Origin: Escherichia coli
GTDB taxonomy: Bacteria > Pseudomonadota > Gammaproteobacteria > Enterobacterales > Enterobacteriaceae
DNA length: 64,000 nt
Assembly: GCF_003790525.1 (NCBI RefSeq)
Contig: NZ_CP033635.1
Strand: one strand, 5' to 3'
Shown here one piece after another: positions 33,401 through 60,622 of the stretch; positions within the stretch are counted from its first letter, which is position 1, and each line of letters begins with the position of its first letter. The translations under genes and the position numbers were made by a program. The notes under the pieces were generated by a model. That model did no database searches. It was given only the letters and a program-made list of their open reading frames with translations, and was not told the origin of the DNA.

Positions 33401-36400
33401 ACACCGGTTTTCACCCAGTTATCCATACAAAAAGCTGCCAGCTGGCGTTCGAGAATAGCCGTTGCATTGAGGAAGACGCCAGGAGCCTGCACCTGGCCCT
33501 GCATCATCTCCAGTGGTTCTTCAAAGAAAAACTGATCGTGCGGGTTCCCTTCTGCCACGGTAATGTTTAACGCGTTACCATCTTTACGACCGGCGCGACC
33601 AATACGCTGCAAGTAGTTGGCCTGAGCAGGTGGGACAGAACAGAGTAAAACGGTGGAAAGATCCCCAACGTCGATACCCATCTCCAGCGTCGGTGTTGCC
33701 GACAACAGGTTGATATTCCACGGTTGGTTGCCGCGGTAGAACGATTTTTCGGTGGCTTCGCGATCTTCACGGCTAAGCAGCCCCGTGTGTTCTGCGCCCT
33801 GCACGCGCGCGATGTCCATGTTCTCCCAACGCCAGGTCGCCGTATTGTCGACTTCCTGGTAACGACCTTCACAACGTAAAGAGAGACAAGGCGCATTACG
33901 CCACTGCCAGCCTTGATCGGCCGGAGCCCGGACAACCTCACGGCAACATGAGCAATTAAGCTGAACGACGTCACGGCTCACCACCAGCGCCGAAGGCACC
34001 AGTCCCCAGGCTTCACGCCCTTTGGTGTCAAAATCTTTTACTACTCCGGCTATTTTCAACGCCGTAAACAGGCGTCGTAACACCGTTTCCGCAACGCTAC
34101 TGATAAACAGATTATTGCCGTTACTCAGCGTGCGATTGATCCAATGCTGATACCAACTGGGGTTAGACTTCGCGCCAATCAGGCGATGGAAACCATTAAT
34201 TTTTTCAAACGACGCATAAGCCGGTTTACGCGTTTTCGGACCGATAGAAGGCATATAGCGCGAGGTACGCTCTTTTTGCGTCATCATAAAGGTCGTGCCA
34301 TCACGGCGATAACTTTCGAACGCCGGATGCATAACGGCCCCGGCCTGGCGTTGATACCAAATAACCCCCAGCGCCAGGTGCGCGACCTGCTCGACGCTCA
34401 CACCGGACATCTCATCACCCAGCTCTTCACAAAGCTGTTGATGCAGGGCGGTAATTGCCGGATTAAAGCGTTCTTTATCCACTCCGGCAACGGCATAACC
34501 GGTGGCTTCCAGCGTACGTCCGATACGCGCGCGCAGGGTAAATTCGCTGTACACCTCCCAGTCGAGGCGCAGGGAAACCAGCTCCGGCAGATCGGAGTTC
34601 TCCGCCAGTTTGCCTTCATTTTTCAGCGTCTGATAATCATTCAGCCACTGCATATTTGGTGCGATGAAGTTCGCTGCAAAATGAGCATCGTCCGGTGAAC
34701 GTTCACGCGTTTGTTGGCAAACACGCGCCGCGAACGCATCCAGCGGTAATGTCTCTTTTTCGCCAAGAACACTGGCGATTTGCCCACGAATCATCAGCGG
34801 CCAGGTTCGGGCAGTAAAAAAGCTGGCACGATGCGCGGCGTCTTGTACCGAGTCAGAAAACGTAATCAGCTTTTTATGTTCGTTGAACTGGCTGCCATAA
34901 AGCTGGTGAATCATCACCGCCGACAGACTGGCAGCCCGTGACCCCAAAATCGAAATCCCCTGTTTGCTGTTGCAGTACGGGCATTCATTAGCAAACTCCA
35001 GCTCGTCCTTACGCTCTTTGAGCATATCCGGGATCAGTACCTGCAACAGCTCTGTATGACCACAATGTCCACACTGGACGCTGGACTGTCGGTTCAGTTT
35101 CAGGCAGGTAGGGCACAGTTTCTGGTGTGCGCCACTGACCGCTTTTTCGTTGTTATCCGGGAAAGCGAGGACGATGGAGCGCCCTTTTTCAAAGAACTGG
35201 CGATAAATGCCGTCGAGGTCTGTTTCCAGCTGAACGCTTTGCCCATGACGCAGGCTGGCCCAGCCGGTTGCGTGGCAGTCACGGCAGTGGATAACCGGCA
35301 AATAGTGTTCGCGGTCTTCCACCGCCACATCATCGGCAAACACCAGTCGCGGCGTTTTCGCCACGCTGGCGACCAGACGACGCATCTCACGAAGCCACAA
35401 CTGGGAGCGCAGTTGCACAAATGGCAGCACCGGACGCACTTTCTTCGCCTGGAGACGTTTTTGCCGATCGTGTTCCGTTTCCGGTACTTCGAGACGTGCC
35501 TGCGCGATCAGTGCCAGAATGCTTTGCAGCACGCGTCGGGCATGGTCGGCGCTTTCTGCCAGCATAACCTGGAGATTTTCCAGACACTCTCGTTCAGAGA
35601 GGATCCCGCCTTGCAGATCATGGAGTAAGACATGCATCACGCTGTGGCGGCGTAACAGTGACCCCAGCGCAATACGCTTTTCACGCCCGTCGTCGCTCTC
35701 CAGATCGTCCGGGAGTTGCAAGTCGCTGTCGGGGAACCACAAAGGGATTTGCCCGTTAAGATACGCTACCGGGGTAGCGTAACTCTGCGGGTCCAGGGCC
35801 GAAGCGACCTCCGGCCCCGGATACTGACTGTACGCAATGGCATAATCCTGCAAGTACTCCGCTGCCGTGTAGCGATCTTCGCGAATAACGGCGTCATCGG
35901 TAAACGGCTGGTCAAAGATTGTTTTTGCGTAATCGAGCAGTTGCCCCAGTTCGTCGCCGACGGTAGCTGATGTCCCGACGCAGGCGAATCGTTGGTTATC
36001 CACACCTATGTGATGCTTCAGACGTCGCACCAGACAGGCCAGATCCGACCCTTGCGCGCCATCAAACGTATGCAATTCATCCACGACCAGGTAACGCAAT
36101 GAGCCGGGCTGGTTGTAACGCCAGAGCGGCTGATCGCCAGGGCGCATCAGCAGGTAGTCGAGCATTTTGTAGTTGGTCAACAGGATGTCCGGCGGGCTTT
36201 CGCGCAGCGTGTGCTTACAGGTAATGACCTTTTCTGCCGACATTTTCTTGCTGGGTTCGATTTCGCTGTCGCCGACAAACAAGCCGACGGTCACCTTGCC
36301 ATGCAGTTGTGGATCGCTGGCGATGGTTTTGGCGAAACGGCTGGCCTGATCGGTTGCCAGGGCGTTCATCGGGTAGATGATAATTGCTTTAACCCCGGCT

Positions 36401-36780
36401 TGTGACGCGCCCGCGCAGTGGTTGAGCAGCGGGAACATAAAACATTCTGTTTTACCGGAGCCGGTACCGGTTGCGACCAGCGTCGGCTGTGGCGCGTCGC
36501 TTCCCAGACGCTGAAATGCCCGGGCCTGATGCGCGTGCGGCGGGAACGGCAGCGTCAGATTAGGGAAAAAATTCAGCGGTAAGTCACTTTTACGAAACGG
36601 CAACTGGGCGGAAAGGTATGGTCCTTTCAGCAGCGTTTCGGGCTGGGCCAGAAATTGCTCCAGCATTGAGACATTATCGTTATTCTCACCGTTAAACAGC
36701 GGGCTGTTTAGCGGGAACGCCGCCCGTAAAAAGGCGGCAACGCTGTCGGCGACCTGCCGACTGACAACGGACGGCAACAT
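30439..36780 (-). CDS. Giant DEAD/DEAH-box helicase with C-terminal DUF1998-like zinc ribbon (2113 aa); DrmA+DrmB-fusion-like or DruE-like
   Basis: Motif I ATGTGSGKTECF, motif II VVDELHTF, motif VI LQRIGRAGRKDG; Cys-rich module YDTVPGGTGS...ECSCNHDTHKDGCYRCVYAYRDRG...; 1-nt overlap with the upstream methyltransferase stop. Confidence 0.8.
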   Translation of the reverse strand: MLPSVVSRQVADSVAAFLRAAFPLNSPLFNGENNDNVSMLEQFLAQPETLLKGPYLSAQLPFRKSDLPLNFFPNLTLPFPPHAHQARAFQRLGSDAPQPTLVATGTGSGKTECFMFPLLNHCAGASQAGVKAIIIYPMNALATDQASRFAKTIASDPQLHGKVTVGLFVGDSEIEPSKKMSAEKVITCKHTLRESPPDILLTNYKMLDYLLMRPGDQPLWRYNQPGSLRYLVVDELHTFDGAQGSDLACLVRRLKHHIGVDNQRFACVGTSATVGDELGQLLDYAKTIFDQPFTDDAVIREDRYTAAEYLQDYAIAYSQYPGPEVASALDPQSYATPVAYLNGQIPLWFPDSDLQLPDDLESDDGREKRIALGSLLRRHSVMHVLLHDLQGGILSERECLENLQVMLAESADHARRVLQSILALIAQARLEVPETEHDRQKRLQAKKVRPVLPFVQLRSQLWLREMRRLVASVAKTPRLVFADDVAVEDREHYLPVIHCRDCHATGWASLRHGQSVQLETDLDGIYRQFFEKGRSIVLAFPDNNEKAVSGAHQKLCPTCLKLNRQSSVQCGHCGHTELLQVLIPDMLKERKDELEFANECPYCNSKQGISILGSRAASLSAVMIHQLYGSQFNEHKKLITFSDSVQDAAHRASFFTARTWPLMIRGQIASVLGEKETLPLDAFAARVCQQTRERSPDDAHFAANFIAPNMQWLNDYQTLKNEGKLAENSDLPELVSLRLDWEVYSEFTLRARIGRTLEATGYAVAGVDKERFNPAITALHQQLCEELGDEMSGVSVEQVAHLALGVIWYQRQAGAVMHPAFESYRRDGTTFMMTQKERTSRYMPSIGPKTRKPAYASFEKINGFHRLIGAKSNPSWYQHWINRTLSNGNNLFISSVAETVLRRLFTALKIAGVVKDFDTKGREAWGLVPSALVVSRDVVQLNCSCCREVVRAPADQGWQWRNAPCLSLRCEGRYQEVDNTATWRWENMDIARVQGAEHTGLLSREDREATEKSFYRGNQPWNINLLSATPTLEMGIDVGDLSTVLLCSVPPAQANYLQRIGRAGRKDGNALNITVAEGNPHDQFFFEEPLEMMQGQVQAPGVFLNATAILERQLAAFCMDNWVKTGVPESAICKNVKQMLDELEFGRKSGFPYNLLRYIEQHHAEIAAQFTAIFPDLAAETRQQLLSYLQGAPGQRSLVQRIEEALKLLVEDRKSLRSRIDKLKRSIDKLENAPRDQNFDSDMRELTSERQALMALVNQINNKQTLNFLTDEGLLPNYAFPEAGITLRSVLWRRKEGGEAREYQNTTFEYERPASTALAELAPLNNFYAGGHKVEIEQIDLKVSEPENWRICSHCNYSENIDQTGDQHKYCPKCGTPGWADAGQKTTLLKLRQVYARASARDSQISDESDSREPAFFQRQLLVSFEKEDVSAAYAIEEGEVPFGFEFLSKVTLRDINFGKMADDANELMIAGEAKKRTGFKVCLGCGMVQRPRDHEPRHDLSCKYRTEPEKAKFEDYLYLYRQLESEALRILLPVSSYSNDRVVEASLGAAIQLGLKHYFKGNVDHLKGVVYREPENEGESWRQYLVIYDTVPGGTGSLKELMRTPDNLLKLLELAYQAIVECSCNHDTHKDGCYRCVYAYRDRGRMKYVSRDQARLLLAKILQARDSIRVIDSIKNISLEAMMGSELEKRFISCLQENKNLIVSRSYAHQGAGWIINTRSEPMMSWHLKAQVDLGAKEAVGIPCRPDYVLYPLMQSDAIKPVAIFLDGFAFHKNSVAEDVQKRQAIRDSDNFWVWTVTWADLKEPGLKHVQDVLGLGHNPDMKQPKFYNLFHDTNFAALEASFRERNSFALLLDYLADPGGRTQLWQKMAAAHAWVWLDVKKSQDAGTKQKYAYEMQENAPAWRLAELLPDEPFVFGGLLDSCNSSQQFIELASVLPQQAIKPTTSVAQMRSWLRLHICFDDRYTQDDGYEAGLNGFWRLVNLLQFLPDMTFTSRKAVHLPQESVDVKVTATPEAVPETDESWAEIIEFGLLSAEEIALLQSHSLSAPTLGYELQNDEGEIIAEADLAWPSQKWALIIDNQEFIPLFTTRGWHVAFGPIDENTLQHLSGGDK

Positions 36781-39700
36781 CAGGCGCTCTCCTTATCTTG
36801 TGCAAAGAACGCCCAGGCCACTTTGTAGTCGTCTTCGCGATCCGGCTTGATAAACGGTGCCTGCCAGGTGACGGTACGGCGCTCGCCTTCGTCGCTGCGG
36901 GTATAGTCATCAAAGGTAACGCTGACGGTACCGGTTTGCAGATGTTTGACATCATCCCAGCCGATGGCTTGATCGGTGCAGTCACCGCCGGTCCAGTCCG
37001 GGCTGTCGACGTTAAAGACAAAGCCGTTTTTCAGGTCAGCTTTACGCGCGGTACGAGGCAAGCCAACGCCCACCAGCCCTTTGCTTGGGGTAAAGATAAT
37101 GCGACCGTTTTGATCGTACCAGGTGTCCGCTTCGTACTGGCGCATCACCGGGAACTGAATACGGTAGATGGCGAGTAGTTCTTCGAGGGTTAGCCCCAGC
37201 GCCTGCGCCACCAGCACGTCGATTTCCACCAGCGCCTGACGGCGGCTGTAGTCGGAGCGTAAGGCGCAGTTACGCTGCCATTCTGGGGTCAGATTGGTGA
37301 AGAAATCCTGGGGGAGCTGTGGGAGATCGCGGCTCCAATATTGTATTTTAAATTCTGAGGAATAAATGGAACACCACAATTTTTTATAATGCTCTGTTAT
37401 ACTAACCAAAGCCATCGACCTTGCATGTAAAGAGGCTCTAAACTTCTCATTACTTAATAATGGAAGTTGATTAACTAATGACTGATTCGCATGCCCCATG
37501 CCAGTACACTTGACTCTATAATCTACGACAATGGACAAAGACATCGAAAAGAAATCAAGTAAATCATAGTCATGTTTAAAAATAGTGCTTAGACACGTAT
37601 TAATATGAGAAATACCGGGAGGTATTATAGTTGCGATGAAAGTTCGTTCAGAAGTTGAACCTATCATTTCCCGATTAACAAATCTATAGCCATTAGTCAC
37701 AGGAAAGACATTACCATCCCAAGAAACTGTCGGAATTCGATTTAGAAAATCGGAATACTCGCAATTAGGAATATAATTAACCCTAGGCATATAATTATCA
37801 GGAATAGTCATCAAATCAATGGAGTCATAGTCACTATTTAATTTACATAAAGTCCGTGGCGTTTTGTAATAAGCATTCCCCACAAAGAAATGTGGTCCAG
37901 ATAATATCCATTGTGAAATTCCAGAGGGGAATTCCGTTTTCCTTTTAGTTGTACCATCTCTTTGAGCAAATGTTTCATCAAACATCACTGTAGAATAATA
38001 ATTATTTTTTATTGAAGATAGTTTTTTTGATTTAACATCAAATTTACGTAAAACTTCCAATAATTGTACTGTATGTAAAGCTGGAAGCCTTGCGTGCAGT
38101 GCAGGTGTTGAATTATCATCAAATATCCCCGCAAACAAACGTAACTCATCAATAGTAATTGTTAATACTCTTGATTTATGGGGTGATATATTCCAATTTA
38201 TTTTCAGTTTATCCCCATTGTAAGATTCTTCCTTGATACCAGGAATTTCCCCTTGATTATCATGCAAAATACTTGAATCTATTGTATACACAGAGAACAA
38301 ATTTGACATGTGTGTAAATGAAGGCGATTCTTGCAATGGACCATAAATATTAATACTAAATGTTGTTGCATGATGAACATCGGGAAAAAGCCCTAATTCA
38401 TTTTGAAATTGATAATGGTCACGCAAACGGCAGTAAATTTTGGCACGAAGTTCCCCCGCCTTGCTATCATCATAAACTCCATCAGGGTGCAATAACCCTG
38501 AAACACCATGTTCAGAAATAAGTCGCCATGAGACTGGTAAAAAACATTTATATAGATTTGTTTTTTGCCCTAACAAGCATGAAAAATTTTGCTGACTATT
38601 TAGATAGTTCTGTAATCCAACGGCAGATTCAAACTCACTTCGCCATGCATCTTCTAATCCATAGACTCGTGCAAAAGATTCTTCTCGGAGAGAAGATATA
38701 TTGGCAGCGCTAAGATTGTGCAGTACAAGCTCAGGTTTATAATCTCCCAATATTCCGCGTTCTTCCCATACAACTTTTAGCCACGGCGGGTTTCCGAGCA
38801 TCAGGTCAAAACCGCCGCGCTCGGCAAACAGGTCGCAGAACTCCAGATCCCAGTGGAAGAAACGGTACTGCTTTCTCAGGGCATCGACAATCGCCAGACG
38901 CGGCAAATGACGGAACAACACCTCGGTTTTCAGACGACCTGCGCCGGAAAACAGTGAAGACTCTTCTCGCAGCAGACCTTCTTCGGCAAACAGATCGCCG
39001 GTGGTGTGCTCCGCAACTTCAGTGACTTTTTCCGTGATTACAATCCCGTCGAGCAGGGTTTCAATCTCAAACAACCAGGTGCCGCGATCCGGTAGCTCAT
39101 CGGCTTTGTCGATCGGCCAGAACCACAGCGCGCACCAGTAGTCCATCACCCAACGCAGCTTCTGGTAGGCACTGTTATCTTCAAGACGACCACTGAAGGT
39201 TTCATCTTTACTGCTCAGCGAAGAACGCGTCTGCTCGCTGTTTTCTGCCGGCCACACCGGGTAGCTGTCGGCGGTTTTCAGACGTTCTGCTTTAAGTTGC
39301 TGGCGATAGGTGTTCCACAGAGCTTCCACCTTTTCGCTGATACGCTGCACATCAGCAATCTCATGCCCGGCAAAGCTTTTAATAAACTCTTTGCGCCAGC
39401 TGTCCAGGGCTTTGAAGTCATCCGGATAACGCTGCTTAACGGTTTTATCGCTGTAGTTAGCCATACCGCCGTCGGGCAGCAGGAAGTGAAAAATCTGCGT
39501 CTCTTCACGCGGCGTGTTCATCGCCAGTTCGACCGGCTCGCTGTTAAGCCAGCTCGGATCTTTGGCTTTTTTGTAGGTCAGTTCACTCTTGTTGAACACC
39601 TGACGGCGCGCGCCCACCAGCGAGTTACCGCAGTGCAGCTGGTAACCAAACCACGGTACAAAGGCATCGCCACTGATGGCGTTCAGCCACAGCGACACTT

Positions 39701-41702
39701 CCGCCAGTTCCACCGCCACCGGGTTTAAGTCCACGCCGAAAACGTTGTTGTCGGCAATGTACATTTTCACCCGCTGTAACTCCTGGGTGTAACGATCCTG
39801 CGGAATACGGCGACCTTCCGCCTGCTGCTTGTGGAACAGATACGCTTCCGCCAGCTGGTTGATGGCTTCGTTAAGGAACGCCGCGCTGCCCATCGCCGGT
39901 TCGCACACGGTGAGGTTTAAGATGGCATCAGCTTTAGCGTGCAGATCGGTAATCGGATCAATTTGCTCTTTAAACAGTTCTTTCAGGGCATATTTAACCA
40001 GTGAGCGGGTCAGCACTTCCGGGGTGTAATAAGAGGCAGATTTCTCACGGTCGCGCCCGGCCATACGGTAGATAAAACTGCCTTTGCGGTGAATGCGCAG
40101 ACTGCCGTCTTTCTCGTAGACCTTCTCGTCTTCGTGGTATTTGCCAATCTCATCCTTACTGACGAAGTAACCCGTCTCCAGCTCGTTAAACTCTTCCCCG
40201 GCTTTCTTCACCTCGTAGAGATCTTCGCTGGCGAAGAATCCGCGATAGGAGAGCAGCGCCTCATACACCGCACCCAACTGGTTGATACCCAACTGGCGAT
40301 AAGAAATACGTCCGCGGCGGTTAAAGCGCCCTTTGCCCGGGCGGCTTAACGACATCGCCTGGATAATCTGTTGCAGGGTTTCGTTACGGAATACCACGCG
40401 GTTAAGAATGCGCGTGTTGTTGGCATCAAACAGATGACTTTCCAGACGCGGGACGCTGAACTGATGACTATGGATGGTGATCCGGTCGCCGCTCTCCAGG
40501 TCACTCTGCATTTTCACGCCGCCGTTGTAGCCTTCGCGCACCAGTTTAAACAGCATATTCAGGCTGTCGTGGAAGTAGCGCCCGTTGCGATCTTCTTCGC
40601 TGGTCAGCGGGATCATCTCCAGATCGCGCAACGTTTCCAGGCTGTAACCTTGCAGATAGGTTTTGGCTGTCATTGGCGCATAACCCAGCTCCGGGCGCGC
40701 TTCAATGTAGAACAGGAACAGCAGGCGGTACATGTAACGCAGACATTCGCGGCTCAGTTCATCCGGGTCCACCGCACGGTTACCGGTATAGTTTGCCAGG
40801 CCACGGTCGATCAGATAATGCATCGCTTCGTTGCCCAACAACTCTATGCTTTCGCGCAGGGCATATTTCAGATCTTCCGAAACACCAAACGCATGTTTGT
40901 GCGAATTGTCATCCAGCGAGTCAAGATATGGTGCCCCACTGCCCGGCAGCAGCGAATCTTTATGTAGCAACACTGCCGTCGCTTTCAGCGTATCCGTTTC
41001 ACGACGACTTAAAATCTCTTCAAAATCAAAACGTAGCAGACGGTTTTGCGCCCACTTAGTACGGTCCAACAACAATAGCTGACGGTTACCGAGCAGCAGC
41101 ACAAAACGCGGCGGTTCATTTTGGGTGAAGACCGCCGTAGAGAGCAGATCCTGCCAGCTGCGATATTCACCGTTGGCTTTTTTGCGCAGGCTGTCGCGCT
41201 TATGTTTGTCGGTATCCGCCGGGAATTGCGCGGTCAGTAAGGAGAGCGCCAGCGGATCCAGCGTTCCTTCTTCCTGATCGTGTGCTTCAACAATCCACAG
41301 CCACGGGCTACCGTCAGTGCTGTTGTAACGCGCCAGTACTGGCAGTGGTGTATCGTCATCCAGCATTTGGATCTGCGGCGTAATTTCGTAGCCCAGCGCC
41401 TTTAACAATGGCTGCCAGCGATTACGTTGATCGGCCAGACGCTGCGGGATCTGACGCTGTTTTTCGTGCTCGGCAAGTTTGCGGAAAAACTCAGTCGCCA
41501 GACTGTTAAACTGGTTCCACGGAGCGCGGTATCCCGGCTCTACGTCTTTGCCCTGTTCACGAGCGGCACGCTCCGCTTCACGCGCTGCATTTTCCTGGGC
41601 TATCCAGGGTTCCAGCACATCGCGGATATCACTGGTGAATACCTCACCCAAATAGTGGTTAGAGTAAAATTCGTTTTCGTTATTAATACCGACCAGCGCC
41701 AT
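36780..41702 (-). CDS. Large amino-methyltransferase (N6-adenine or N4-cytosine, 1640 aa); DrmMI/PglX-like
   Basis: SAM-binding motif I VCEPAMGSAAFL and catalytic motif IV GNPPW in gamma-class order; starts 2 nt after the SNF2 gene stop. Confidence 0.8.
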   Translation of the reverse strand: MALVGINNENEFYSNHYLGEVFTSDIRDVLEPWIAQENAAREAERAAREQGKDVEPGYRAPWNQFNSLATEFFRKLAEHEKQRQIPQRLADQRNRWQPLLKALGYEITPQIQMLDDDTPLPVLARYNSTDGSPWLWIVEAHDQEEGTLDPLALSLLTAQFPADTDKHKRDSLRKKANGEYRSWQDLLSTAVFTQNEPPRFVLLLGNRQLLLLDRTKWAQNRLLRFDFEEILSRRETDTLKATAVLLHKDSLLPGSGAPYLDSLDDNSHKHAFGVSEDLKYALRESIELLGNEAMHYLIDRGLANYTGNRAVDPDELSRECLRYMYRLLFLFYIEARPELGYAPMTAKTYLQGYSLETLRDLEMIPLTSEEDRNGRYFHDSLNMLFKLVREGYNGGVKMQSDLESGDRITIHSHQFSVPRLESHLFDANNTRILNRVVFRNETLQQIIQAMSLSRPGKGRFNRRGRISYRQLGINQLGAVYEALLSYRGFFASEDLYEVKKAGEEFNELETGYFVSKDEIGKYHEDEKVYEKDGSLRIHRKGSFIYRMAGRDREKSASYYTPEVLTRSLVKYALKELFKEQIDPITDLHAKADAILNLTVCEPAMGSAAFLNEAINQLAEAYLFHKQQAEGRRIPQDRYTQELQRVKMYIADNNVFGVDLNPVAVELAEVSLWLNAISGDAFVPWFGYQLHCGNSLVGARRQVFNKSELTYKKAKDPSWLNSEPVELAMNTPREETQIFHFLLPDGGMANYSDKTVKQRYPDDFKALDSWRKEFIKSFAGHEIADVQRISEKVEALWNTYRQQLKAERLKTADSYPVWPAENSEQTRSSLSSKDETFSGRLEDNSAYQKLRWVMDYWCALWFWPIDKADELPDRGTWLFEIETLLDGIVITEKVTEVAEHTTGDLFAEEGLLREESSLFSGAGRLKTEVLFRHLPRLAIVDALRKQYRFFHWDLEFCDLFAERGGFDLMLGNPPWLKVVWEERGILGDYKPELVLHNLSAANISSLREESFARVYGLEDAWRSEFESAVGLQNYLNSQQNFSCLLGQKTNLYKCFLPVSWRLISEHGVSGLLHPDGVYDDSKAGELRAKIYCRLRDHYQFQNELGLFPDVHHATTFSINIYGPLQESPSFTHMSNLFSVYTIDSSILHDNQGEIPGIKEESYNGDKLKINWNISPHKSRVLTITIDELRLFAGIFDDNSTPALHARLPALHTVQLLEVLRKFDVKSKKLSSIKNNYYSTVMFDETFAQRDGTTKRKTEFPSGISQWILSGPHFFVGNAYYKTPRTLCKLNSDYDSIDLMTIPDNYMPRVNYIPNCEYSDFLNRIPTVSWDGNVFPVTNGYRFVNREMIGSTSERTFIATIIPPGISHINTCLSTIFKHDYDLLDFFSMSLSIVVDYRVKCTGMGHANQSLVNQLPLLSNEKFRASLHARSMALVSITEHYKKLWCSIYSSEFKIQYWSRDLPQLPQDFFTNLTPEWQRNCALRSDYSRRQALVEIDVLVAQALGLTLEELLAIYRIQFPVMRQYEADTWYDQNGRIIFTPSKGLVGVGLPRTARKADLKNGFVFNVDSPDWTGGDCTDQAIGWDDVKHLQTGTVSVTFDDYTRSDEGERRTVTWQAPFIKPDREDDYKVAWAFFAQDKESA

Positions 41703-41704
41703 GA

Positions 41705-51110: not shown

Positions 51111-54100
51111 ACTCCTGCTTGTTCAAAATAATATTGATAGATTACCCCTAATTGCTGCGGGGCTTGCTGATAGTGGAATTCAAAAAGCGCAGACAGTTGA
51201 TGTATCAAGTTATTATCTTTTTGGGTTAACAGCGCTGCGACTAACATCAAATTAAAACGTTTTTCAAGCCGTGAGTGATATTTATTTTTAATCCAAAGCT
51301 TATTAAAAACAGATTTTAACTCTGGAGTAATCGCACTAGACCAAAGTTCTTTAGGGAAGATACTGATACGCCCAAAGCTGTCGGGGTTCCTTAATAGCAT
51401 CTGTTTAGCTTCATTAAACTGCTCACGACTAACAGTTGGCAAGACATTACAACCGGCTGGTAGGAGTTTGCTATATGTAAGTAACATATTCGCAATGGGA
51501 GCCAGACGACGATCGATATGTGCACGATGGTTCATAAAAGCAATAAAGGGTTGCAATATATGTAATGCTAATGTTTTATCGTTAATCTGTTTTTCCAGAT
51601 AAGCCCAACACTTTTGAAAAACATCTTTCCAGATTGAAACGGGAATCCATCCCCATGAAAAGGGTAATTCTTCCTGTATATCATAAATCGTATCGCTATC
51701 ACCAGAAAGACATGATGATATTAACAACTGAACAACTACGCGGTAATTACTCGAAATACCTCTGAACAAATCCAGATCCAGCAAGGATAAGCCATTATTC
51801 ATTTTGTATTTCTTAATATACTCCGTTAATAAACAGCAATAATTTTGCAAAGGATTGTTATCTATTTCAAAAATTAGCTCATTAAAATATTTTTTTCGCT
51901 GTTCGGAATCCGCTTCGCATAGAGCATTAAGTAATAAATCATTTGTCTGTAATACAGGTAGCCCCCATTTAATTACTGGTGCAATGCGAGCTGTACCATC
52001 AAGTTTCCCCACAATTAACCATGGGCTATCCTGAACATTCAGAGCTGAAAGATCATAAGCAAATTCATCTTTTTTTAGCAACGATATGTGTAAGCCAGGA
52101 TCCTTAAGAGAAATAGCATCAACAACCAGCTCGTCTATTCTATTTGCAGGAAAAACAACAGAATTTTTTATATCAACCAGTAACCCTTGATCGTGTTCAA
52201 TAAAACTACCATCGTAGCGTTTAATACTGAGTGTTGCTTTATCCTTTCCAAATCTGTCAGAGTAAAAATCAACACATAATGTACTATTGCTGCTCCATGC
52301 ACATGCCAGCATAGCATTTAGCAAATTATAGTTCTCATAAAGTGAAATTTGTTTTAATTTGTCATTGCATCCTGATAAAAGAGGAAGGTCGGCATGTAAA
52401 TAACGGAATTTTTCAGCTACTGGATTTTCATCCAACAACTCGATATTAAGATATCCTCTTCCAGCACAAGATATGGTTAACAACTCAGCATCTATTCCAT
52501 GCAAATGCGCTATAGATGCCACACCATCAAAATGAACAGAACCATCATGAGTTACAAATCGGCCACCGCTAACCGGCTTAGGTAATAATAGTTTAAGATT
52601 AGAACCATCTTTCCAGGAGACCCGTAAATCAACGGTATTTTCCAGCATCTCCGATGAATTATAATAAATAGCACACTCGTTTTGTGAATAATCGGACTTA
52701 AGTGTTACTTTTTCATTGTTTGAATATTTGTCAATTCTAGTATCCGTTATACCAGAAAGCATTATGATGCCTTGCTGAGCACTCTCAGGTATAATATTAA
52801 TATCGAAGTCAGCTGGTAAAACTACAACTTTACCGCTAAATAAAACCTCATCATTAACTATTCGTCTGACTTCTATCTGTCCTTTTGGCATTTTTGATGC
52901 GACAGAATACCAGGCATTGTTACCTGAACGAATGGAACGCCAAAAAAGTTCTTTCTCCGGTACAATGCCATATTGCAGATCCTTTTTCCAACCGATCTTC
53001 GGCCAGGCTCGATGGACAGGATAATCCGATTTAACCAGTTCAACTTCTGTCGATTTAATATAATATTCAATCGCAGAATCATAAAGTTGCTGGGTGCGAA
53101 TTGTACAAACTGCACCATCATGTAAAACAACGCTAAATACTCCACTTATTTTAGTTAAGCTGCGTTCACTGTTTTTCAGCAACCTTGGGATATCAAACTC
53201 ACCTTCTCCACTAATATCTAAATGGCTATTTTTCGGTAGCGAAATAAACAGAGCATTTAGCCTGGAACTCACAGACCCCATACCGACAAGTTTTAGCTGC
53301 GATTCACTCTCATTCATCGCTTCAAAAACCCAGGGGAGTTCTTCAGTAAGTTCATAACCGCCTTTTGGAATTGTGTGGCCTAACAGAATTGGACCTTCAT
53401 GAAGCGACAACGAGATTTCGGCCATTGCATCTGCACCAGAGAGCTTTTGCATCGCAATAGGTAATAACTCGACCCGCCAATCTTGCTGCTCATAACGGCT
53501 TAGCATTGCCAACCTTGCCCCGCCATTTCTCCATTTTCCTGAAATGATGAGTCGGGTCTGCTCCGGCTGAATATTGCATTCAAACAAAGAGGTTAACTGT
53601 TCTGTACGCATTGTGGCCGGGAATCGGAACCGGGCATCACAATACCAACTGTCATCAACATCGACCCAGATTCTTTCAACCTGAAGACTACTTGCACTGC
53701 GTATTTCAGAAGATTGAGAAAGTAATCGCCTTACAATCTCTGCAGCATTCGCTTCGGGGAGAACGAGTGGAAGTTGAAGGTGCCAGTCTGGAGAGAGCTT
53801 ACGTAATGCAGAAACGGGATCACTGCTTTGAGGTGGATGCTCACTAAGTAATCGGCAGAGAGTCTCGCAGAATTCACCGGCTATTTCATAGACCAGTTCG
53901 TTTTGCATTGTGACAGGAATCGTATCGCCTAATTCTTGTGCAATTTTAGCGGCAGGATATTGAGATGCTTGCCCACGAAGCGCCTGATATATCCTTCTGA
54001 AATAGGTAATCAAATAACCGCTCTCATTTTCAATCATGCGGATAGGTAAACCACCTTCACAAGCCAGTGTATGCAGATAACCCGAAGCTTGCCCCAGGTT

Positions 54101-54460
54101 TCTTATCTTTCTTTTCCAGTAGCGAATGCCATCATTAACCAGCTTCTGTCGATGAACATACGGAACTTTCCAGTCAATAGAATCTAAAATTGTGTCCCAT
54201 TTAGGGTGTCCGACCGTATGAGTCCGGCGGATAAACTCTGCGGCATATATGCTAAATAGAACATCGCTATAGGAAATGAATATCGTTCTTGGATAACTAC
54301 GGGGGGCATATGTACGCAGTAGTTCTGCCAAACTTTCGTACTCTGTATCAGTACAACGGTAAGCATATAACGCCCGTCCATCAGCTCCGGATAATGAACG
54401 GCGACTAAAAAACATGTTAAGCCATTGCAAAAGTGGGTTAACTGGAGTTTTCACAAGCAA
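51101..54460 (-). CDS. Large protein of unknown function (up to 1119 aa; true start uncertain); DruH-like partner of the helicase
   Basis: Long intact ORF with no recognisable catalytic motif; AT-rich codon usage; translationally coupled to the downstream helicase. Confidence 0.6.
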   Translation of the reverse strand: MLVKTPVNPLLQWLNMFFSRRSLSGADGRALYAYRCTDTEYESLAELLRTYAPRSYPRTIFISYSDVLFSIYAAEFIRRTHTVGHPKWDTILDSIDWKVPYVHRQKLVNDGIRYWKRKIRNLGQASGYLHTLACEGGLPIRMIENESGYLITYFRRIYQALRGQASQYPAAKIAQELGDTIPVTMQNELVYEIAGEFCETLCRLLSEHPPQSSDPVSALRKLSPDWHLQLPLVLPEANAAEIVRRLLSQSSEIRSASSLQVERIWVDVDDSWYCDARFRFPATMRTEQLTSLFECNIQPEQTRLIISGKWRNGGARLAMLSRYEQQDWRVELLPIAMQKLSGADAMAEISLSLHEGPILLGHTIPKGGYELTEELPWVFEAMNESESQLKLVGMGSVSSRLNALFISLPKNSHLDISGEGEFDIPRLLKNSERSLTKISGVFSVVLHDGAVCTIRTQQLYDSAIEYYIKSTEVELVKSDYPVHRAWPKIGWKKDLQYGIVPEKELFWRSIRSGNNAWYSVASKMPKGQIEVRRIVNDEVLFSGKVVVLPADFDINIIPESAQQGIIMLSGITDTRIDKYSNNEKVTLKSDYSQNECAIYYNSSEMLENTVDLRVSWKDGSNLKLLLPKPVSGGRFVTHDGSVHFDGVASIAHLHGIDAELLTISCAGRGYLNIELLDENPVAEKFRYLHADLPLLSGCNDKLKQISLYENYNLLNAMLACAWSSNSTLCVDFYSDRFGKDKATLSIKRYDGSFIEHDQGLLVDIKNSVVFPANRIDELVVDAISLKDPGLHISLLKKDEFAYDLSALNVQDSPWLIVGKLDGTARIAPVIKWGLPVLQTNDLLLNALCEADSEQRKKYFNELIFEIDNNPLQNYCCLLTEYIKKYKMNNGLSLLDLDLFRGISSNYRVVVQLLISSCLSGDSDTIYDIQEELPFSWGWIPVSIWKDVFQKCWAYLEKQINDKTLALHILQPFIAFMNHRAHIDRRLAPIANMLLTYSKLLPAGCNVLPTVSREQFNEAKQMLLRNPDSFGRISIFPKELWSSAITPELKSVFNKLWIKNKYHSRLEKRFNLMLVAALLTQKDNNLIHQLSALFEFHYQQAPQQLGVIYQYYFEQAGVCH

Positions 54461-54671
54461 CCTGCCTTCCTTTGATACAATTCGTAACAGGTTACTATCA
54501 TCATAAAAAAGCTCAACCCGATGAACTCGCTAAAAATGAGACAAATCATTTATATCTCGAAAAAACTTGTTACAATCATGAGCGCTACACCGAACTTAAC
54601 CATATAAATTATGTGTGTTTTGTTTATTTTTTAAACAATTACAACTATCCATTATTTACACAGGTATCAAA

Positions 54672-56324
54672 ATGTTAGCGCAGCTTTTTGAGCAGTTGTT
54701 TCAATCGATAGACTCTACACTGATCACCAATATTTTCATCTGGGCTGTTATATTCGTATTTTTATCAGCGTGGTGGTGTGACAAAAAAAATATACATAGT
54801 AAGTTTAGAGAATATGCTCCAACCTTAATGGGGGCATTAGGTATTCTGGGTACTTTCATTGGTATTATTATTGGGTTACTCAATTTTAATACTGAAAGTA
54901 TTGATACCAGCATCCCCGTATTATTAGGCGGCCTAAAAACAGCATTCATTACAAGCATTGTAGGTATGTTTTTTGCCATTTTATTTAATGGAATGGATGC
55001 TTTCTTTTTTGCCAATAAACGAAGTGCGTTAGCAGAAAATAACCCTGAATCTGTTACACCTGAACATATCTATCATGAATTAAAAGAGCAGAACCAGACT
55101 CTGACTAAATTAGTCTCGGGTATTAACGGTGATAGTGAAGGTTCTCTTATTGCTCAAATAAAATTACTACGTACTGAGATTAGCGATTCCTCGCAGGCAC
55201 AATTAGCTAATCACACTCATTTCAGTAATAAGCTTTGGGAACAACTTGAACAATTTGCAGATCTAATGGCAAAAGGTGCTACAGAACAAATTATTGATGC
55301 TTTACGACAAGTCATTATTGATTTTAATGAAAATTTAACTGAACAGTTTGGTGAAAACTTTAAAGCACTTGATGCCTCTGTAAAAAAACTTGTTGAGTGG
55401 CAGGAAAATTATAAAACGCAAGTTGAGCTGATGTCAGAACAATATCAACAAAGTGTCGAGTCTCTGGTTGAAACAAAAACTGCGGTTGCCGGGATTTGGG
55501 AAGAATGTAAAGAAATTCCTCTGGCTATGTCTGAACTGCGTGAAGTGCTTCAGGTGAACCAACATCAAATCAGCGAACTCTCCCGCCATTTAGAAACCTT
55601 TGTCGCCATCCGCGATAAAGCTACAACCGTATTACCTGAAATACAGAACAAAATGGCTGAAGTGGGTGAACTGCTGAAATCCGGAGCTGCAAATGTTAGT
55701 GCATCTCTTGAGCAAACCAGCCAGCAAATACTTCTTAATGCAGATTCAATGCGCGTGGCCCTGGATGAAGGTACCGAAGGATTCAGACAATCGGTTACCC
55801 AAACACAACAAGCATTTGCCTCGATGGCACATGATGTCAGCAATTCCTCCGAAACTCTAACCAGCACGTTAGGTGAAACAATTACTGAAATGAAACAAAG
55901 TGGTGAAGAATTCCTGAAGTCACTAGAGTCGCACTCGAAAGAATTGCATAGAAATATGGAACAAAATACGACTAATGTAATTGATATGTTCAGTAAGACT
56001 GGTGAAAAGATTAACCATCAACTATCCAGTAATGCCGATAATATGTTTGATTCAATCCAGACATCATTTGATAAGGCAAGTGCAGGGCTGACTTCTCAAG
56101 TCAGAGAATCAATTGAAAAATTTGCTCTATCCATCAACGAGCAGTTACATGCTTTTGAGCAAGCAACTGAACGTGAGATGAACCGTGAAATGCAATCATT
56201 AGGTAATGCTCTGCTTTCAATCAGCAAAGGTTTTGTCGGTAACTATGAAAAACTTATTAAAGATTACCAAATAATTATGGGGCAGTTACAAGCATTAATT
56301 TCTGCTAATAAACATCGAGGGTAA
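54672..56324 (+). CDS. zorA: Zorya ZorA (MotA/ExbB/TolQ-like membrane protein with long coiled-coil tail)
   Basis: N-terminal multi-TM region followed by a long, heptad-rich, low-complexity tail; start taken at ATG 54672 (track ORF begins at an upstream GTG). Confidence 0.7.
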   Translation: MLAQLFEQLFQSIDSTLITNIFIWAVIFVFLSAWWCDKKNIHSKFREYAPTLMGALGILGTFIGIIIGLLNFNTESIDTSIPVLLGGLKTAFITSIVGMFFAILFNGMDAFFFANKRSALAENNPESVTPEHIYHELKEQNQTLTKLVSGINGDSEGSLIAQIKLLRTEISDSSQAQLANHTHFSNKLWEQLEQFADLMAKGATEQIIDALRQVIIDFNENLTEQFGENFKALDASVKKLVEWQENYKTQVELMSEQYQQSVESLVETKTAVAGIWEECKEIPLAMSELREVLQVNQHQISELSRHLETFVAIRDKATTVLPEIQNKMAEVGELLKSGAANVSASLEQTSQQILLNADSMRVALDEGTEGFRQSVTQTQQAFASMAHDVSNSSETLTSTLGETITEMKQSGEEFLKSLESHSKELHRNMEQNTTNVIDMFSKTGEKINHQLSSNADNMFDSIQTSFDKASAGLTSQVRESIEKFALSINEQLHAFEQATEREMNREMQSLGNALLSISKGFVGNYEKLIKDYQIIMGQLQALISANKHRG

Positions 56325-56330
56325 TCGATC

Positions 56331-57038
56331 ATGGATAAGATTATAGGGAAACAATTACCTAAAAAAGATCAAGATAATGAACACTGGGTATCCATGTCAG
56401 ACCTAATGGCAGGGCTGATGATGGTTTTTATGTTCATATCTATTGCTTATATGCACTACGTACGTATTGAAAAAGAAAAAATTAAAGAAGTTGCCGTAGC
56501 CTACGAGAATGCTCAGTTACAGCTTTATAATGCTCTGGATATTGAGTTTGCAAAGGATTTGCAAGACTGGGATGCAGAGATCGATAAGCAGACTCTGGAG
56601 GTTCGATTTAAATCACCGGATGTTTTATTTGGCTTAGGAAGCACAGAGCTTAAACCAAAGTTTAAACTCATTCTTGACGACTTCTTTCCTCGCTACCTAA
56701 AAGTTCTTGATAATTATCAAGAACATATTACTGAAGTCCGCATTGAAGGTCACACAAGTACTGACTGGACTGGAACAACGAATCCTGATATTGCTTATTT
56801 TAATAATATGGCACTATCACAAGGTCGTACACGTGCAGTATTACAATACGTTTATGATATAAAAAATATCGCGACACACCAACAATGGGTTAAAAGTAAA
56901 TTTGCCGCAGTAGGTTATTCATCTGCACATCCCATTCTTGATAAAACCGGCAAGGAGGATCCTAATCGCTCTCGTCGTGTCACCTTCAAAGTTGTAACAA
57001 ATGCCGAGTTGCAGATTAGAAAGATTATTCAGGAGTAA
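56331..57038 (+). CDS. zorB: Zorya ZorB (MotB/OmpA-like peptidoglycan-binding protein)
   Basis: N-terminal TM helix with Asp (SMSDLMAGLMMVFMFI) and C-terminal OmpA-like region; 6 bp after zorA. Confidence 0.7.
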   Translation: MDKIIGKQLPKKDQDNEHWVSMSDLMAGLMMVFMFISIAYMHYVRIEKEKIKEVAVAYENAQLQLYNALDIEFAKDLQDWDAEIDKQTLEVRFKSPDVLFGLGSTELKPKFKLILDDFFPRYLKVLDNYQEHITEVRIEGHTSTDWTGTTNPDIAYFNNMALSQGRTRAVLQYVYDIKNIATHQQWVKSKFAAVGYSSAHPILDKTGKEDPNRSRRVTFKVVTNAELQIRKIIQE

Positions 57039-57041
57039 GAG

Positions 57042-58145
57042 ATGAAATTATCTATCGACATTTCAGAACTTATTCAATTAGGGAAGAAAATGTTACCAGA
57101 AGGAGTCGATTTTTTTCTGGATGAATCCCCTATTGACTTTGATCCTATAGATATTGAGTTATCCACGGGTAAAGAAGTTAGTATCGAAGATCTTGACCCT
57201 GGTAGCGGGCTAATCTCTTATCATGGCCGCCAGGTTCTTTTATATATTAGGGACCATTCAGGGCGTTATGATGCGGCTATCATCGATGGCGAAAAAGGAA
57301 AACGTTTTCATATTGCCTGGTGCAGAACTCTTGATGAAATGCGCCATAAAAATCGATTTGAAAGGTATCATGCAACTAACCGCATAGATGGTTTATTCGA
57401 AATTGATGATGGTTCAGGCCGGAGCCAGGATGTTGATTTACGGGTATGTATGAATTGTCTGGAACGACTTAATTACAAAGGAAGTATTGATAAACAAAGG
57501 AAAAGAGAGATTTTTAAATCATTCTCATTAAATGAGTTTTTTTCAGATTATAGTACCTGTTTTCGTCATATGCCTAAGGGTATCTATGACAAAACAAATA
57601 GTGGGTATGTCGAAAACTGGAAAGATATATCAAAATCAATACGAGAAAAGGCCAAGTATACTTGTAATGATTGTGGTGTGAATTTATCAACCGCCAAAAA
57701 CTTGTGCCATGTCCATCATAAAAATGGCATCAAATATGATAATCACCATGAAAACCTTCTTGTTCTGTGTAAGGATTGCCATCGTAAACAGCCCCTCCAT
57801 GAAGGTATATTCGTTACCCAAGCTGAGATGGCTATCATTCAACGTTTACGTTCCCAACAAGGGTTATTAAAAGCCGAATCCTGGAATGAAATATATGACC
57901 TGACTGATCCATCAGTACATGGTGATATTAATATGATGCAACATAAAGGCTTTCAACCTCCTGTTCCTGGGTTAGATCTTCAAAACTCAGAACATGAAAT
58001 TATTGCAACCGTAGAAGCAGCATGGCCAGGCCTTAAAATTGCAGTTAACCTTACTCCCGCCGAAGTCGAAGGATGGAGAATATATACCGTGGGTGAGCTG
58101 GTTAAAGAAATACAAACAGGAGCCTTTACGTCAGCAACGTTGTAA
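57042..58145 (+). CDS. zorE: Zorya type II ZorE (HNH endonuclease)
   Basis: HNH/zinc-finger motif CNDCGVNL...HVHHKNG...DNHHENLLVLCKDCH; 3 bp after zorB. Confidence 0.7.
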   Translation: MKLSIDISELIQLGKKMLPEGVDFFLDESPIDFDPIDIELSTGKEVSIEDLDPGSGLISYHGRQVLLYIRDHSGRYDAAIIDGEKGKRFHIAWCRTLDEMRHKNRFERYHATNRIDGLFEIDDGSGRSQDVDLRVCMNCLERLNYKGSIDKQRKREIFKSFSLNEFFSDYSTCFRHMPKGIYDKTNSGYVENWKDISKSIREKAKYTCNDCGVNLSTAKNLCHVHHKNGIKYDNHHENLLVLCKDCHRKQPLHEGIFVTQAEMAIIQRLRSQQGLLKAESWNEIYDLTDPSVHGDINMMQHKGFQPPVPGLDLQNSEHEIIATVEAAWPGLKIAVNLTPAEVEGWRIYTVGELVKEIQTGAFTSATL

Positions 58146-58156
58146 ATTCCGAAACT

Positions 58157-58198
58157 CCGTGAAAGTTAAGACTTTCACGGAAGATAAATAAAATTTTC
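58157..58198 (+). terminator. Intrinsic terminator candidate downstream of zorE
   Basis: ccgtgaaagt / actttcacgg 10-bp stem with 4-nt loop followed by an A/T-rich tract. Confidence 0.45.
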
Positions 58199-58254
58199 CT
58201 GATTTGTGACTCAAATTACAAAAGTCGTTTATGGCATAACTTGTCTGTTTTTTT

Positions 58255-58273
58255 GGTGTAATAGGTATAAAGG
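58255..58273. promoter_or_regulatory. Orphan GGTATA-repeat (NanR operator-like) site upstream of the truncated nanM duplicate
   Basis: ggtgtaataggtataaagg, resembling the site at 22864-22884. Confidence 0.4.
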
Positions 58274-58354
58274 CATATGCTATGGTTAGCCTTATATTTA
58301 AAACTTTCCTCATACGGGTGAAGGTTAAAGCTTGGTAGATAGGTTACAGTCACA

Positions 58355-58965
58355 ATGAATAAAGCAATAACGGTGCTTGCTATAATGATGGCTTCATTTT
58401 CCGTAAATGCGTATGTATTACCGGAAACGCCTGTGCCATTTAAAAGTGGTACCGGAGAAATTGATAACAACACTGTCTACATTGGTTTAGGTAGCGCAGG
58501 TACGGCATGGTACAAGCTGGAGAAACAGACCAAAGATAAAAAAATGGACAGCGTTAGCTGCATTTCCTGGTGGACCGAGAGATCAAGCAACCTCTGCATT
58601 TATTGATGGCAATCTGTATGTGTTTGGCGGCATTGGCAAAAACAGCGAGGGCTTGACTCAGGTATTTAATGACGTACACAAATACAACCCCAAAACCAAT
58701 AGCTGGGTTAAATTGATGTCGCACGCGCCGATGGGCATGGCGGGTCATGTGACATTTGTACACAACGGCAAGGCTTATGTTACTGGCGGTGTTAACCAGA
58801 ATATCTTCAACGGCTATTTTGAAGATCTTAACGAAGCTGGAAAAGATTCAACATACCGAACGCCGGAGAACTGGACGACGACACCACGAAGCAGTCATTT
58901 CAGTCGGGGGATGATTGTAGACAAATTTGTTGACGCTATTTTGCGGTTTTGGCGTGAAGGGTGAG
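58355..58965 (+). pseudogene. Truncated, frameshifted duplicate of nanM fused to the 3' end of nanS
   Basis: N-terminal NanM-like sequence with a +1 frameshift in a poly-A run; continues NanM-like to ...EAGKDST, then jumps to NanS C-terminal sequence; 3' flank matches the nanS 3' flank at 26196-26250. Confidence 0.8.
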
Positions 58966-58971
58966 CATTCA

Positions 58972-59613
58972 TTAATTTGCATCCATCAACGCTTTTAACT
59001 GCTCCGGCGAAAACGGTGGTTTGCGTCGGTGCAACATCGCATGGCAATTAGGGCACACAGGAAGCAAATCATTAACTGGATCCAGCTGGTAATCCTCTTT
59101 AATGGCTGAAAGCGGCACCAGGTGATGCATATGGATAAAACCCTCAGCGATATCGCCATAGATCTTCACCAGATCAACGCCGCATACGTTGCACTGGCAT
59201 CCATGATGTTCGACCGCTTTATCTCGGGCCTTTTTATCGCGTTCATAGCGGTTTACTGTCACCTTTATCGCCGCACCTTCAACGTATGTCTCCTGCGACG
59301 GCAACTCATCCGGGAACAGAACGTCGGCTATGGGAGCCGCAGCGGCTTTATCCTGATGAATATGAAATCCCTGCTCTATGAGTAGTTTGACGCATTTAGA
59401 TTTTATTCCGCCGGTGAAATCCGCAGGGGTAAATTGCGTCCCCGTCATCAATGTCGCTGCGATGCCAGCAATCGCCTTCGAGGGGTAACGTCGGCCATGA
59501 TATTCAATCTTATACAACCGCGCAGGCTGGAACTGATGAGTTTCTCCCGCATCCCATAAATGGATAGCTTCGATGATATACCGCCGCGGAAGATGATCGG
59601 GGAGTTTATTCAT
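58972..59613 (-). CDS. HNH endonuclease-domain protein (213 aa), McrA-like architecture
   Basis: C-terminal HNH motif CQCNVCGVDL...HMHHLVPLS...NDLLPVCPNCHAMLH; N-terminal putative DNA-recognition domain. Confidence 0.65.
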   Translation of the reverse strand: MNKLPDHLPRRYIIEAIHLWDAGETHQFQPARLYKIEYHGRRYPSKAIAGIAATLMTGTQFTPADFTGGIKSKCVKLLIEQGFHIHQDKAAAAPIADVLFPDELPSQETYVEGAAIKVTVNRYERDKKARDKAVEHHGCQCNVCGVDLVKIYGDIAEGFIHMHHLVPLSAIKEDYQLDPVNDLLPVCPNCHAMLHRRKPPFSPEQLKALMDAN

Positions 59614-59692: not shown

Positions 59693-60622
59693 TTGAACAG
59701 CAGAAAATTTGCGAGCATGATCGCAACTATTTCACTGCCAGGGATATCAATGGCTTCCAGTAAATCGCTACAGCAGGCAATCGCCAATATAAAAATCTGG
59801 CACAAGGGTGAACAGCGCGCGCCGCATAAACCATTGTTACTGCTATACGTATTAGCGGGATACCTGAATGGGCATCCGCGCCTTTTCGATTATGGATTGG
59901 AAATCTACGAACCTCTGCACAATTTACTGGAACGTTTTGGGCCACAGCGTTCACAGTACCGACCTGATATGCCGTTCTGGCGATTACAAGGCGACGGATT
60001 CTGGCAATTACACAATGCCGAGCTTTGCTCAACAGCAGGGAGCAGCCGACAACCGCCAGTGAAGGAACTGAACGAATACCACGTTGCAGGCGGTTTCGAT
60101 GAACAGCACTACGCCCTGGTAACCGGCAATAAAAAACTCATCAATACTCTGGCGCAACAGATACTCGAAGCGCACTTCACCGAGAGTATTCAGGAAGAAA
60201 TTGCTGACGAGCTGGGTTTTGATCTCCAGCAAATCCGTAAACAGCGTGACCCGTTATTTCGCAAAAATGTATTACGCGCTTATAACTACCAGTGCGCGAT
60301 ATGTGGCTTTAATATGCGCCACGACGACACCACCGTCGCGCTGGAAGCGGCGCATATAAAATGGAAACAGCACGGCGGTCCTTGTGAAATTCCTAATGGC
60401 CTGGCGCTTTGCGCAATTCACCATAAAGCCTTTGATAAAGGATCGATTGGCCTGGATGAAAATATGCGGGTACTGGTCTCGGATGCGGTAAACGGCGGAG
60501 GGATCGTTGAGAGATTATTCTGGGATTTTGATGGGAAAACTATTGCGTTGCCACAGGTGCGTAAAAATTACCCTTTTGAGGGGTTTGTGGAGTGGCATCG
60601 AAAAGAGGTTTTTAGGGGGTGA
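59693..60622 (+). CDS. HNH endonuclease-domain protein (309 aa) with N-terminal putative DNA-recognition domain
   Basis: HNH motif CAICGFNM...EAAHIKW...NGLALCAIHHKAFD; start may be at a downstream Met. Confidence 0.65.
   Translation: MNSRKFASMIATISLPGISMASSKSLQQAIANIKIWHKGEQRAPHKPLLLLYVLAGYLNGHPRLFDYGLEIYEPLHNLLERFGPQRSQYRPDMPFWRLQGDGFWQLHNAELCSTAGSSRQPPVKELNEYHVAGGFDEQHYALVTGNKKLINTLAQQILEAHFTESIQEEIADELGFDLQQIRKQRDPLFRKNVLRAYNYQCAICGFNMRHDDTTVALEAAHIKWKQHGGPCEIPNGLALCAIHHKAFDKGSIGLDENMRVLVSDAVNGGGIVERLFWDFDGKTIALPQVRKNYPFEGFVEWHRKEVFRG

Follow-up and report, generated by a model that had tools for sequence, protein, structure and literature searches.

The window analysed here is a stretch of 64,000 nucleotides of Escherichia coli DNA (contig NZ_CP033635.1 of assembly GCF_003790525.1), and the element in question is a set of three co-directional genes within it, zorA2, zorB2 and zorE, spanning positions 54672-58145. 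We are nearly certain that these genes constitute an intact copy of the known E. coli type II Zorya anti-phage system. The assignment to type II is made because all three products exceed the cut-offs of the NCBIfam equivalog models for ZorA2, ZorB2 and ZorE. An earlier reading of the same DNA from its letters (the original prediction) had proposed a type II Zorya architecture, and had named PADLOC and profiles for ZorA, ZorB and ZorE among the means of checking it; all three proteins matched type II models, and the PADLOC Zorya II models were matched end to end. A zorE gene directly downstream of zorA and zorB defines type II, while ZorC and ZorD mark type I and ZorF and ZorG mark type III. 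Profile scans of the neighbouring genes gave no match to ZorC, ZorD, ZorF or ZorG, and nothing in the sequence contradicts the assignment. None of this is new: publications cover the system and its subtype, its structure, the chemistry of its effector, its divergent pairing with Druantia III and the exact island, and RefSeq names are in place.

The operon and its products

We conclude that zorA, zorB and zorE are real genes and not chance open reading frames (ORFs), because their products match PADLOC models with 1001, 346 and 585 bits, and because the RefSeq annotation of an identical genome places genes at these very coordinates. None of the three ORFs is shortened or frameshifted. Their tight packing, which had been noticed at the outset, is borne out by both the ORF list and direct reading, with 6 bp (TCGATC) between zorA2 and zorB2 and 3 bp (GAG) between zorB2 and zorE. 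Shine-Dalgarno-like sequences, GAGGG and AGGAG, lie 5' of zorB and zorE, respectively. An alternative start for zorA, a GTG at 54615, is mechanically possible. We prefer the ATG at 54672 because family profiles align from residue 1 (the NCBIfam profile pairs ZorA 1-550 with its own positions 1-550) and because the RefSeq start is identical.

Between the starts of druH and zorA2 lies an AT-rich spacer (Table 1) that presumably holds both divergent promoters. The original prediction had placed a shared divergent spacer of 210 bp next to druH; the spacer is indeed there, but its length is 211 bp. It is identical at 210 of 211 positions to that of the O157:H7 strain 2159. Sigma-70-like matches fall in the spacer region at 54472-54501 and 54549-54576 on the plus strand, and at 54678-54651 and 54635-54608 on the minus strand. 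Over the scanned interval 54300-58500 the number of promoter-like matches was not above chance (13, against 15.0 ± 3.8 in shuffled sequences), and terminator matches in the same interval did not exceed the shuffled expectation either. We therefore claim neither a promoter nor a terminator there, and that the spacer functions as a promoter region is something that we infer.

ZorA2 matches the PADLOC model PDLC00638 with 1001.5 bits over residues 1-550, and the NCBIfam equivalog NF041792 with 1139.3 bits against a cut-off of 700. Hydrophobic segments at approximately 12-36, 48-74 and 81-114, together with a Pfam MotA_ExbB match to residues 51-110 (E 1.6e-6), outline a MotA/ExbB-like stator core of about residues 1-105, which is followed by a cytoplasmic tail of 445 amino acids (aa), residues 106-550. 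The tail contains only four prolines and has a hydrophobic period of 3.65 residues, a periodicity reached by none of 200 shuffled sequences, and Pfam apolipoprotein-type helical repeats match residues 312-503. This composition supports the prediction of a long amphipathic helix, in keeping with published descriptions of a long helical rod in ZorA. The MotA-like protein with a long coiled-coil tail that had been proposed is thus recovered, in the form of a MotA_ExbB match and a tail with helical periodicity.

ZorB2 scores 346.3 bits with PADLOC and 443.8 bits with the NCBIfam equivalog NF041787 (cut-off 400). It has a single transmembrane segment at residues 20-44, which contains D24, and a Pfam OmpA match at residues 99-213 (E 3.8e-8). 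As judged from these features, ZorB is predicted to be a MotB-like protein with an ion-coupling Asp24 in its N-terminal transmembrane helix and a C-terminal peptidoglycan-binding domain of the OmpA type. The expectation of a MotB/OmpA-like second protein is in agreement with both the OmpA match and the NF041787 score.

ZorE matches the PADLOC ZorE2 model with 584.7 bits and NCBIfam NF041791 with 691.3 bits (cut-off 600). Three regions can be distinguished: an N-terminal putative zinc site formed by H90, C94, C136 and C139, an HNH domain at about residues 185-262, and a C-terminal region of roughly 100 aa, about residues 258-367, whose fold may be endonuclease-like. PHROG HNH endonuclease families match residues 185-262 with E down to 2.7e-9, and ZorE resembles known HNH nucleases significantly at the level of profile or fold. 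Direct reading identifies the HNH motif as C208-x2-C211, H225-H226, N238 and C243-x2-C246-H247, so that the HNH nuclease expected as the third protein is found with its catalytic residues present, whose absence would have told against the original prediction. An alignment of 69 homologues with identity down to 37% shows no substitution at H90, C94, C136, C139, Y189, C208, C211, H225, H226, N238, L239, C243 or C246, while at least 90% of the sequences share H247 and H253. Taken together, these comparisons point to ZorE as a soluble effector with a central HNH nickase domain.

The C-terminal region of ZorE is harder to place. In Druantia-linked ZorE it has been described as a nuclease-like region whose family could not be assigned (Wu et al., PMC13192584). 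Our fold matches to it are nearly all restriction-endonuclease-like nucleases with weak scores, namely PvuRts1I (5.8), AbaSI (5.7), I-Bth0305I (4.3) and Cdn1 (4.3), followed by further weak matches to VRR-NUC (4.1), Vsr (4.0), the DUF559-like NGO0050 (3.6), TnsA (3.4) and Hjc (3.3). R270, W281, D289, P307, W328 and W345 are invariant in this region, and E325, within the motif EAAWP, is mostly conserved. Enzymes of the Vsr/DUF559 type carry an acidic residue at the position after the strand that reads IAV in ZorE, where the ZorE homologues vary between N, T, H, A, S, C and Y. These results hint that residues 258-367 may adopt a Vsr/PD-(D/E)xK-like fold with a partly conserved catalytic motif. 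We regard this as a hint at the level of the fold and not as a demonstrated second active site, given the low scores and the incomplete conservation of the catalytic motif.

Proposed mechanism and competing explanations

The mechanism that we propose comes from experimental work on other copies, either 98-100% identical to the present one (O157:H7) or closely related to it, and is carried over by that identity. Five ZorA and two ZorB subunits would form an ion-driven rotary complex of the MotAB kind in the inner membrane, idle at rest. Entry of a phage would perturb the envelope, upon which the OmpA-like domain of ZorB would engage the peptidoglycan. This engagement would open the ion path through ZorB Asp24, so that ZorA would turn around the anchored ZorB, and the pentameric helical tail of ZorA would carry the signal into the cytoplasm and recruit ZorE to the site of infection. 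ZorE, as a Mg/Mn-dependent HNH enzyme, would mainly nick DNA, that of phage and host alike; nicking would block propagation of the phage and, at high phage load, may come at a cost to the infected cell. The neighbouring Druantia III may use ZorE without ZorAB against some phages.

The published experiments identify the parts of the system that matter for its function. The ATCC 8739 system depends on D24, H141, S143, R215 and R230 of ZorB and on the ZorA tail 106-550 (Mariano et al., PMC11890865), and ZorE acts mainly as a Mg/Mn-dependent nickase that is recruited to the membrane fraction on infection (PMC11890865). For the ECOR19 system, H90, Y189, H226 and K231 of ZorE are needed for all activity (Wu et al., PMC13192584), while stand-alone defence depends on N238/L239 and H247/H253, and the synergy led by Druantia on E99 and N234/H235 (PMC13192584). 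In EDL933, deletion of the chromosomal zorABE removed protection against Autographiviridae (10.1101/2025.09.22.677730). Anti-phage protection, and its dependence on all three genes, have been shown for the ATCC 8739, ECOR19 and EDL933 copies (PMC11890865; PMC13192584; 10.1101/2025.09.22.677730). The ZorA tail that we delimit covers the same residues as the deletion in PMC11890865. Direct reading finds the five ZorB residues D24, H141, S143, R215 and R230 kept, and ZorE retains H90, E99, Y109, Y189, H226, K231, N234, H235, N238, L239, H247 and H253 with the same numbering.

Four caveats go with the assignment. The anti-phage function of this particular copy is carried over from other alleles by its 98-100% identity to an O157:H7 copy. 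The trigger, and the passage from ZorA rotation to ZorE recruitment, are models in the literature and not demonstrated steps. Published work also disagrees on whether Zorya provides direct defence or population-level immunity (PMC11890865, discussion). Finally, Pfam-A finds no significant domain in ZorE, its HNH_3 model reaching only E 0.081, and with Pfam-A non-significant the HNH call is based on PHROGs, PADLOC, the motif and the fold.

There are three competing explanations for the operon. The first, which we consider improbable, is that ZorE serves mainly Druantia III, as an accessory nuclease whose recruitment does not involve ZorAB, instead of being the effector of an autonomous Zorya system. 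DruE, DruH and ZorE suffice without ZorAB for the full combined phenotype against phage Bas37 (PMC13192584), druH adjoins zorABE in 507 of the 529 full E. coli copies (~96%), and ZorE of the window bears the C-terminal extension that has been described as typical of ZorE proteins linked to Druantia. However, defence against T3 requires ZorAB, and Zorya II on its own is protective against T3 and T7-type phages (PMC13192584), while loss of any single Zorya gene abolishes protection (PMC11890865). Furthermore, another island, free of Druantia, holds a Zorya II variant of 90% identity whose ZorE is of like length (365 aa). A role for ZorE in Druantia III complements the assignment to type II Zorya, and does not replace it.

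The second explanation is that the operon looks intact but is decayed or silent, being unexpressed or non-functional in this strain. The promoter- and terminator-like matches that fail to rise above chance are compatible with this, as are the shortened zorE remnants in other E. coli genomes, the insertion sequence (IS) elements that interrupt the locus in some strains, and an apparent IS in the nearby JetC-like gene of the window. Against it, the three full-length ORFs keep every experimentally required residue, and the spacer differs from that of O157:H7 strain 2159 at a single position. In EDL933, another O157:H7 strain, the chromosomal operon contributes to resistance under its own promoter, and Zorya II of ATCC 8739 protects from its native promoter. 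We therefore judge a silent or decayed operon to be very improbable.

The third, to which we give next to no weight, is that zorA and zorB are a housekeeping stator or energiser pair (MotAB, ExbBD/TolQR) with an unrelated HNH gene behind it: Pfam offers only its generic MotA_ExbB and OmpA domains, and there are weak NCBIfam matches to MotS, MotB, MotD and TssL models at 27-40 bits, but these lie far under the cut-offs of 140-300 (259-300 for the MotS, MotB, MotD and MotB-family models), the ZorA2 and ZorB2 equivalogs are exceeded with no MotA/ExbB equivalog listed for ZorA, the helical ZorA tail has no counterpart in MotA or ExbB, the closely packed unit is conserved in 529 E. coli genomes, and the operon belongs to a defence island, flagellar and Ton genes being absent from its vicinity. 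A genuine flagellar stator or ExbB/ExbD pair, the outcome that the original prediction had itself held up against its reading, is ruled out by the family-model scores. The intact type II Zorya system remains the reading that we adopt.

The surrounding defence island

Table 1. Position of the Zorya operon and of neighbouring features in the window.
Feature	Position	Strand	Description	Basis
zorA2	54672-56324	+	550 aa, ATG start	Six-frame ORF list and direct reading; RefSeq WP_000880882.1
zorB2	56331-57038	+	235 aa, ATG start	Six-frame ORF list and direct reading
zorE	57042-58145	+	367 aa, ATG start	Six-frame ORF list and direct reading
druH/zorA2 spacer	54461-54671	none	AT-rich, 211 bp between the druH and zorA2 starts; presumed site of both promoters	
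druH (Druantia III)	51101-54460	-	1119 aa	PADLOC DruH3, 2541 bits; NCBIfam STY4851/ECs_5259 family, 980 bits
druE (Druantia III)	44787-51110	-	YprA-like helicase-nuclease	PADLOC DruE3, 2180 bits over residues 9-2105
Four co-directional genes upstream of druE	28328-44563	-		Profile matches
HNH endonuclease	58972-59613	-	Defence-type gene downstream of Zorya	
Phosphorothioated-DNA-binding HNH restriction endonuclease	59693-60622	+		NCBIfam, 436.7 bits
PDC-S11 candidate defence protein	60734-61732	-	NucS-like N-terminus	Profile match
JetD3-like protein	61859-62914	-	In SMS-3-5, the last member of a Wadjet-like operon of four genes	

The divergent neighbours of the operon, described as a Druantia-like pair in the original prediction, are identified by PADLOC as DruH and DruE of Druantia III, in the arrangement of O-island 172 (10.1101/2025.09.22.677730), and druH is a functional partner of Zorya II in published work. 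The four genes further upstream encode a GajB-like UvrD helicase (704 aa), a YprA/DruE-like helicase (2113 aa), a DrmMI/type IIG-like methyltransferase (1640 aa) and a DrmD-like SNF2 helicase (952 aa). As far as their profile matches tell, this set has the composition published for ARMADA II (armABCD); PADLOC v2.0.0 holds no model for ARMADA II as a system.

This nine-gene array, with zorABE divergent from druHE-armABCD, is O-island 172 of EDL933 (10.1101/2025.09.22.677730), and the carriers of the array include SMS-3-5 and ATCC 8739 (10.1101/2025.09.22.677730). A conserved Zorya-Druantia-ARMADA array has been described on prophage-like elements at tRNA-Leu or tRNA-Phe (PMC12458937). The left part of the window carries dha, ptsP, uxu, gntP, fim and nan genes, and positions 42000-63299 are collinear and identical with SMS-3-5. 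There is no tRNA gene within the 64-kb window, and the integration site can therefore not be read from it.

Several features of the right flank can be described. Just after zorE, positions 58335-58971 comprise a 518-bp direct copy, 95% identical, of the 5' part of nanM (compared with 24019-24535), after which comes a stretch that matches the 3' end of a truncated nanS ORF (26061-26197) at 76%. The nanM/nanS sequences flank a block of 32 kb. RefSeq annotates 58355-58853 as a frameshifted Kelch-repeat pseudogene. Beyond lies a series of defence-type genes (Table 1), and collinearity with SMS-3-5 stops after 63299. The minus-strand ORF at 63334-63996, which by eye we take to resemble an IS256-family transposase, seems to interrupt a large JetC-like gene, leaving in frame only a C-terminal piece of 105 aa (62927-63244). 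If the JetC-like gene is indeed interrupted, this strain has probably lost the activity of its Wadjet-like system.

The present finding is of value as a confirmation. The array behind much of the phage resistance of the enterohaemorrhagic E. coli lineage is present intact in the window, which matters when phages are to be chosen for the therapy or biocontrol of strains with this array.

Relatives and known systems

The DNA at 54400-58200 is 100% identical to that of E. coli SMS-3-5 and at least 13 other complete genomes, and the RefSeq annotation of SMS-3-5 already reads zorA2, zorB2 and zorE. The operon finds a match in 593 of 5426 complete E. coli genomes, with at least 80% of it present in 529 (~10%). 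A query extended by druH is still matched over at least 80% at a single location in 507 genomes, or ~96% of the full copies. Some E. coli genomes retain only the last 872 bp of zorE (approximately 57274-58145 of the window), annotated as HNH endonuclease, and a 93%-identical cluster of 271 members, 266 aa in length, is probably that remnant.

A second E. coli lineage of Zorya II is represented by STEC313 (NZ_CP041433.1, 6022-9489), with ~90% DNA identity to the window's operon and proteins that are 91.6% (ZorA), 96.2% (ZorB) and 87.2% (ZorE) identical to those of the window. It lies in a different, Druantia-free island, beside remnants of type VI secretion system genes and a PAPS-reductase/IbrB pair, and is present at 99% identity or more in ten genomes. 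We considered whether this variant might be the ATCC 8739 allele and rejected the possibility, ATCC 8739 being absent from the ten genomes at that level of identity. The ATCC 8739 copy has been placed at another chromosomal site, on a tRNA-Phe element (PMC12458937). Two 50-kb stretches of NC_010468.1 covering the thrA-fim locus of ATCC 8739 contained no Zorya/Druantia array, and at 4096000-4099300 of the same sequence the fim-nan-leuX region is truncated beside an IS3 copy.

Among known systems, MotAB and ExbBD/TolQR have in common with the window's ZorAB a 5:2 ion-driven rotary architecture and a conserved transmembrane Asp in the B subunit, with an OmpA-like peptidoglycan anchor in MotB, but they have no long cytoplasmic tail, no associated nuclease and no defence-island context. 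Zorya type I (ZorABCD; E. coli NCTC 9026, 8QYH/8QYK/8QYY; Shewanella, 8VVN) follows the same principle of a long-tailed ZorAB motor that recruits a nuclease effector, and the channel region shows weak similarity (E 4e-5 for ZorA, 4e-6 for ZorB). Type I, however, has larger ZorA and ZorB proteins and uses as effectors ZorC and ZorD, an SNF2 helicase with an Mrr-like nuclease, with no ZorE; the ZorA1 and ZorB1 models score far under the type II models on the window's proteins.

Another relative is the solved type II complex of Sulfuricurvum kujiense, ZorA5B2 (PDB 8VVI), to which ZorA (chain F, E 7e-38 over 42-383) and ZorB (chain A, E 1.5e-52 over 13-234) both match; its membrane core and its peptidoglycan-binding domain in ZorB are homologous to those of the window's proteins. 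The 5:2 architecture and the ion-coupling Asp are common to the two, the latter being D21 in S. kujiense and D24 here. ZorA of S. kujiense is shorter, with 378 aa where the window's ZorA has 550, the E. coli tail being longer by approximately 170 residues.

The closest systems are those of EDL933 (O-island 172, z5894-z5896), ECOR19 and ATCC 8739, which have the same order zorA-zorB-zorE, the same lengths of 550, 235 and 367 aa, and the same divergent druHE followed by armABCD. Our comparison with O157:H7 used strain 2159, not EDL933, and gave identities to the window's proteins of 99.1% for ZorA, 100% for ZorB and 97.8% for ZorE. The five differences in ZorA (E220Q, E245G, V251I, L253Q and I535V) are all in the tail, and none of the eight in ZorE is at a tested or invariant residue. 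The functionally tested residues of Zorya II of the EDL933/ECOR19/ATCC 8739 type are all identical in the window.

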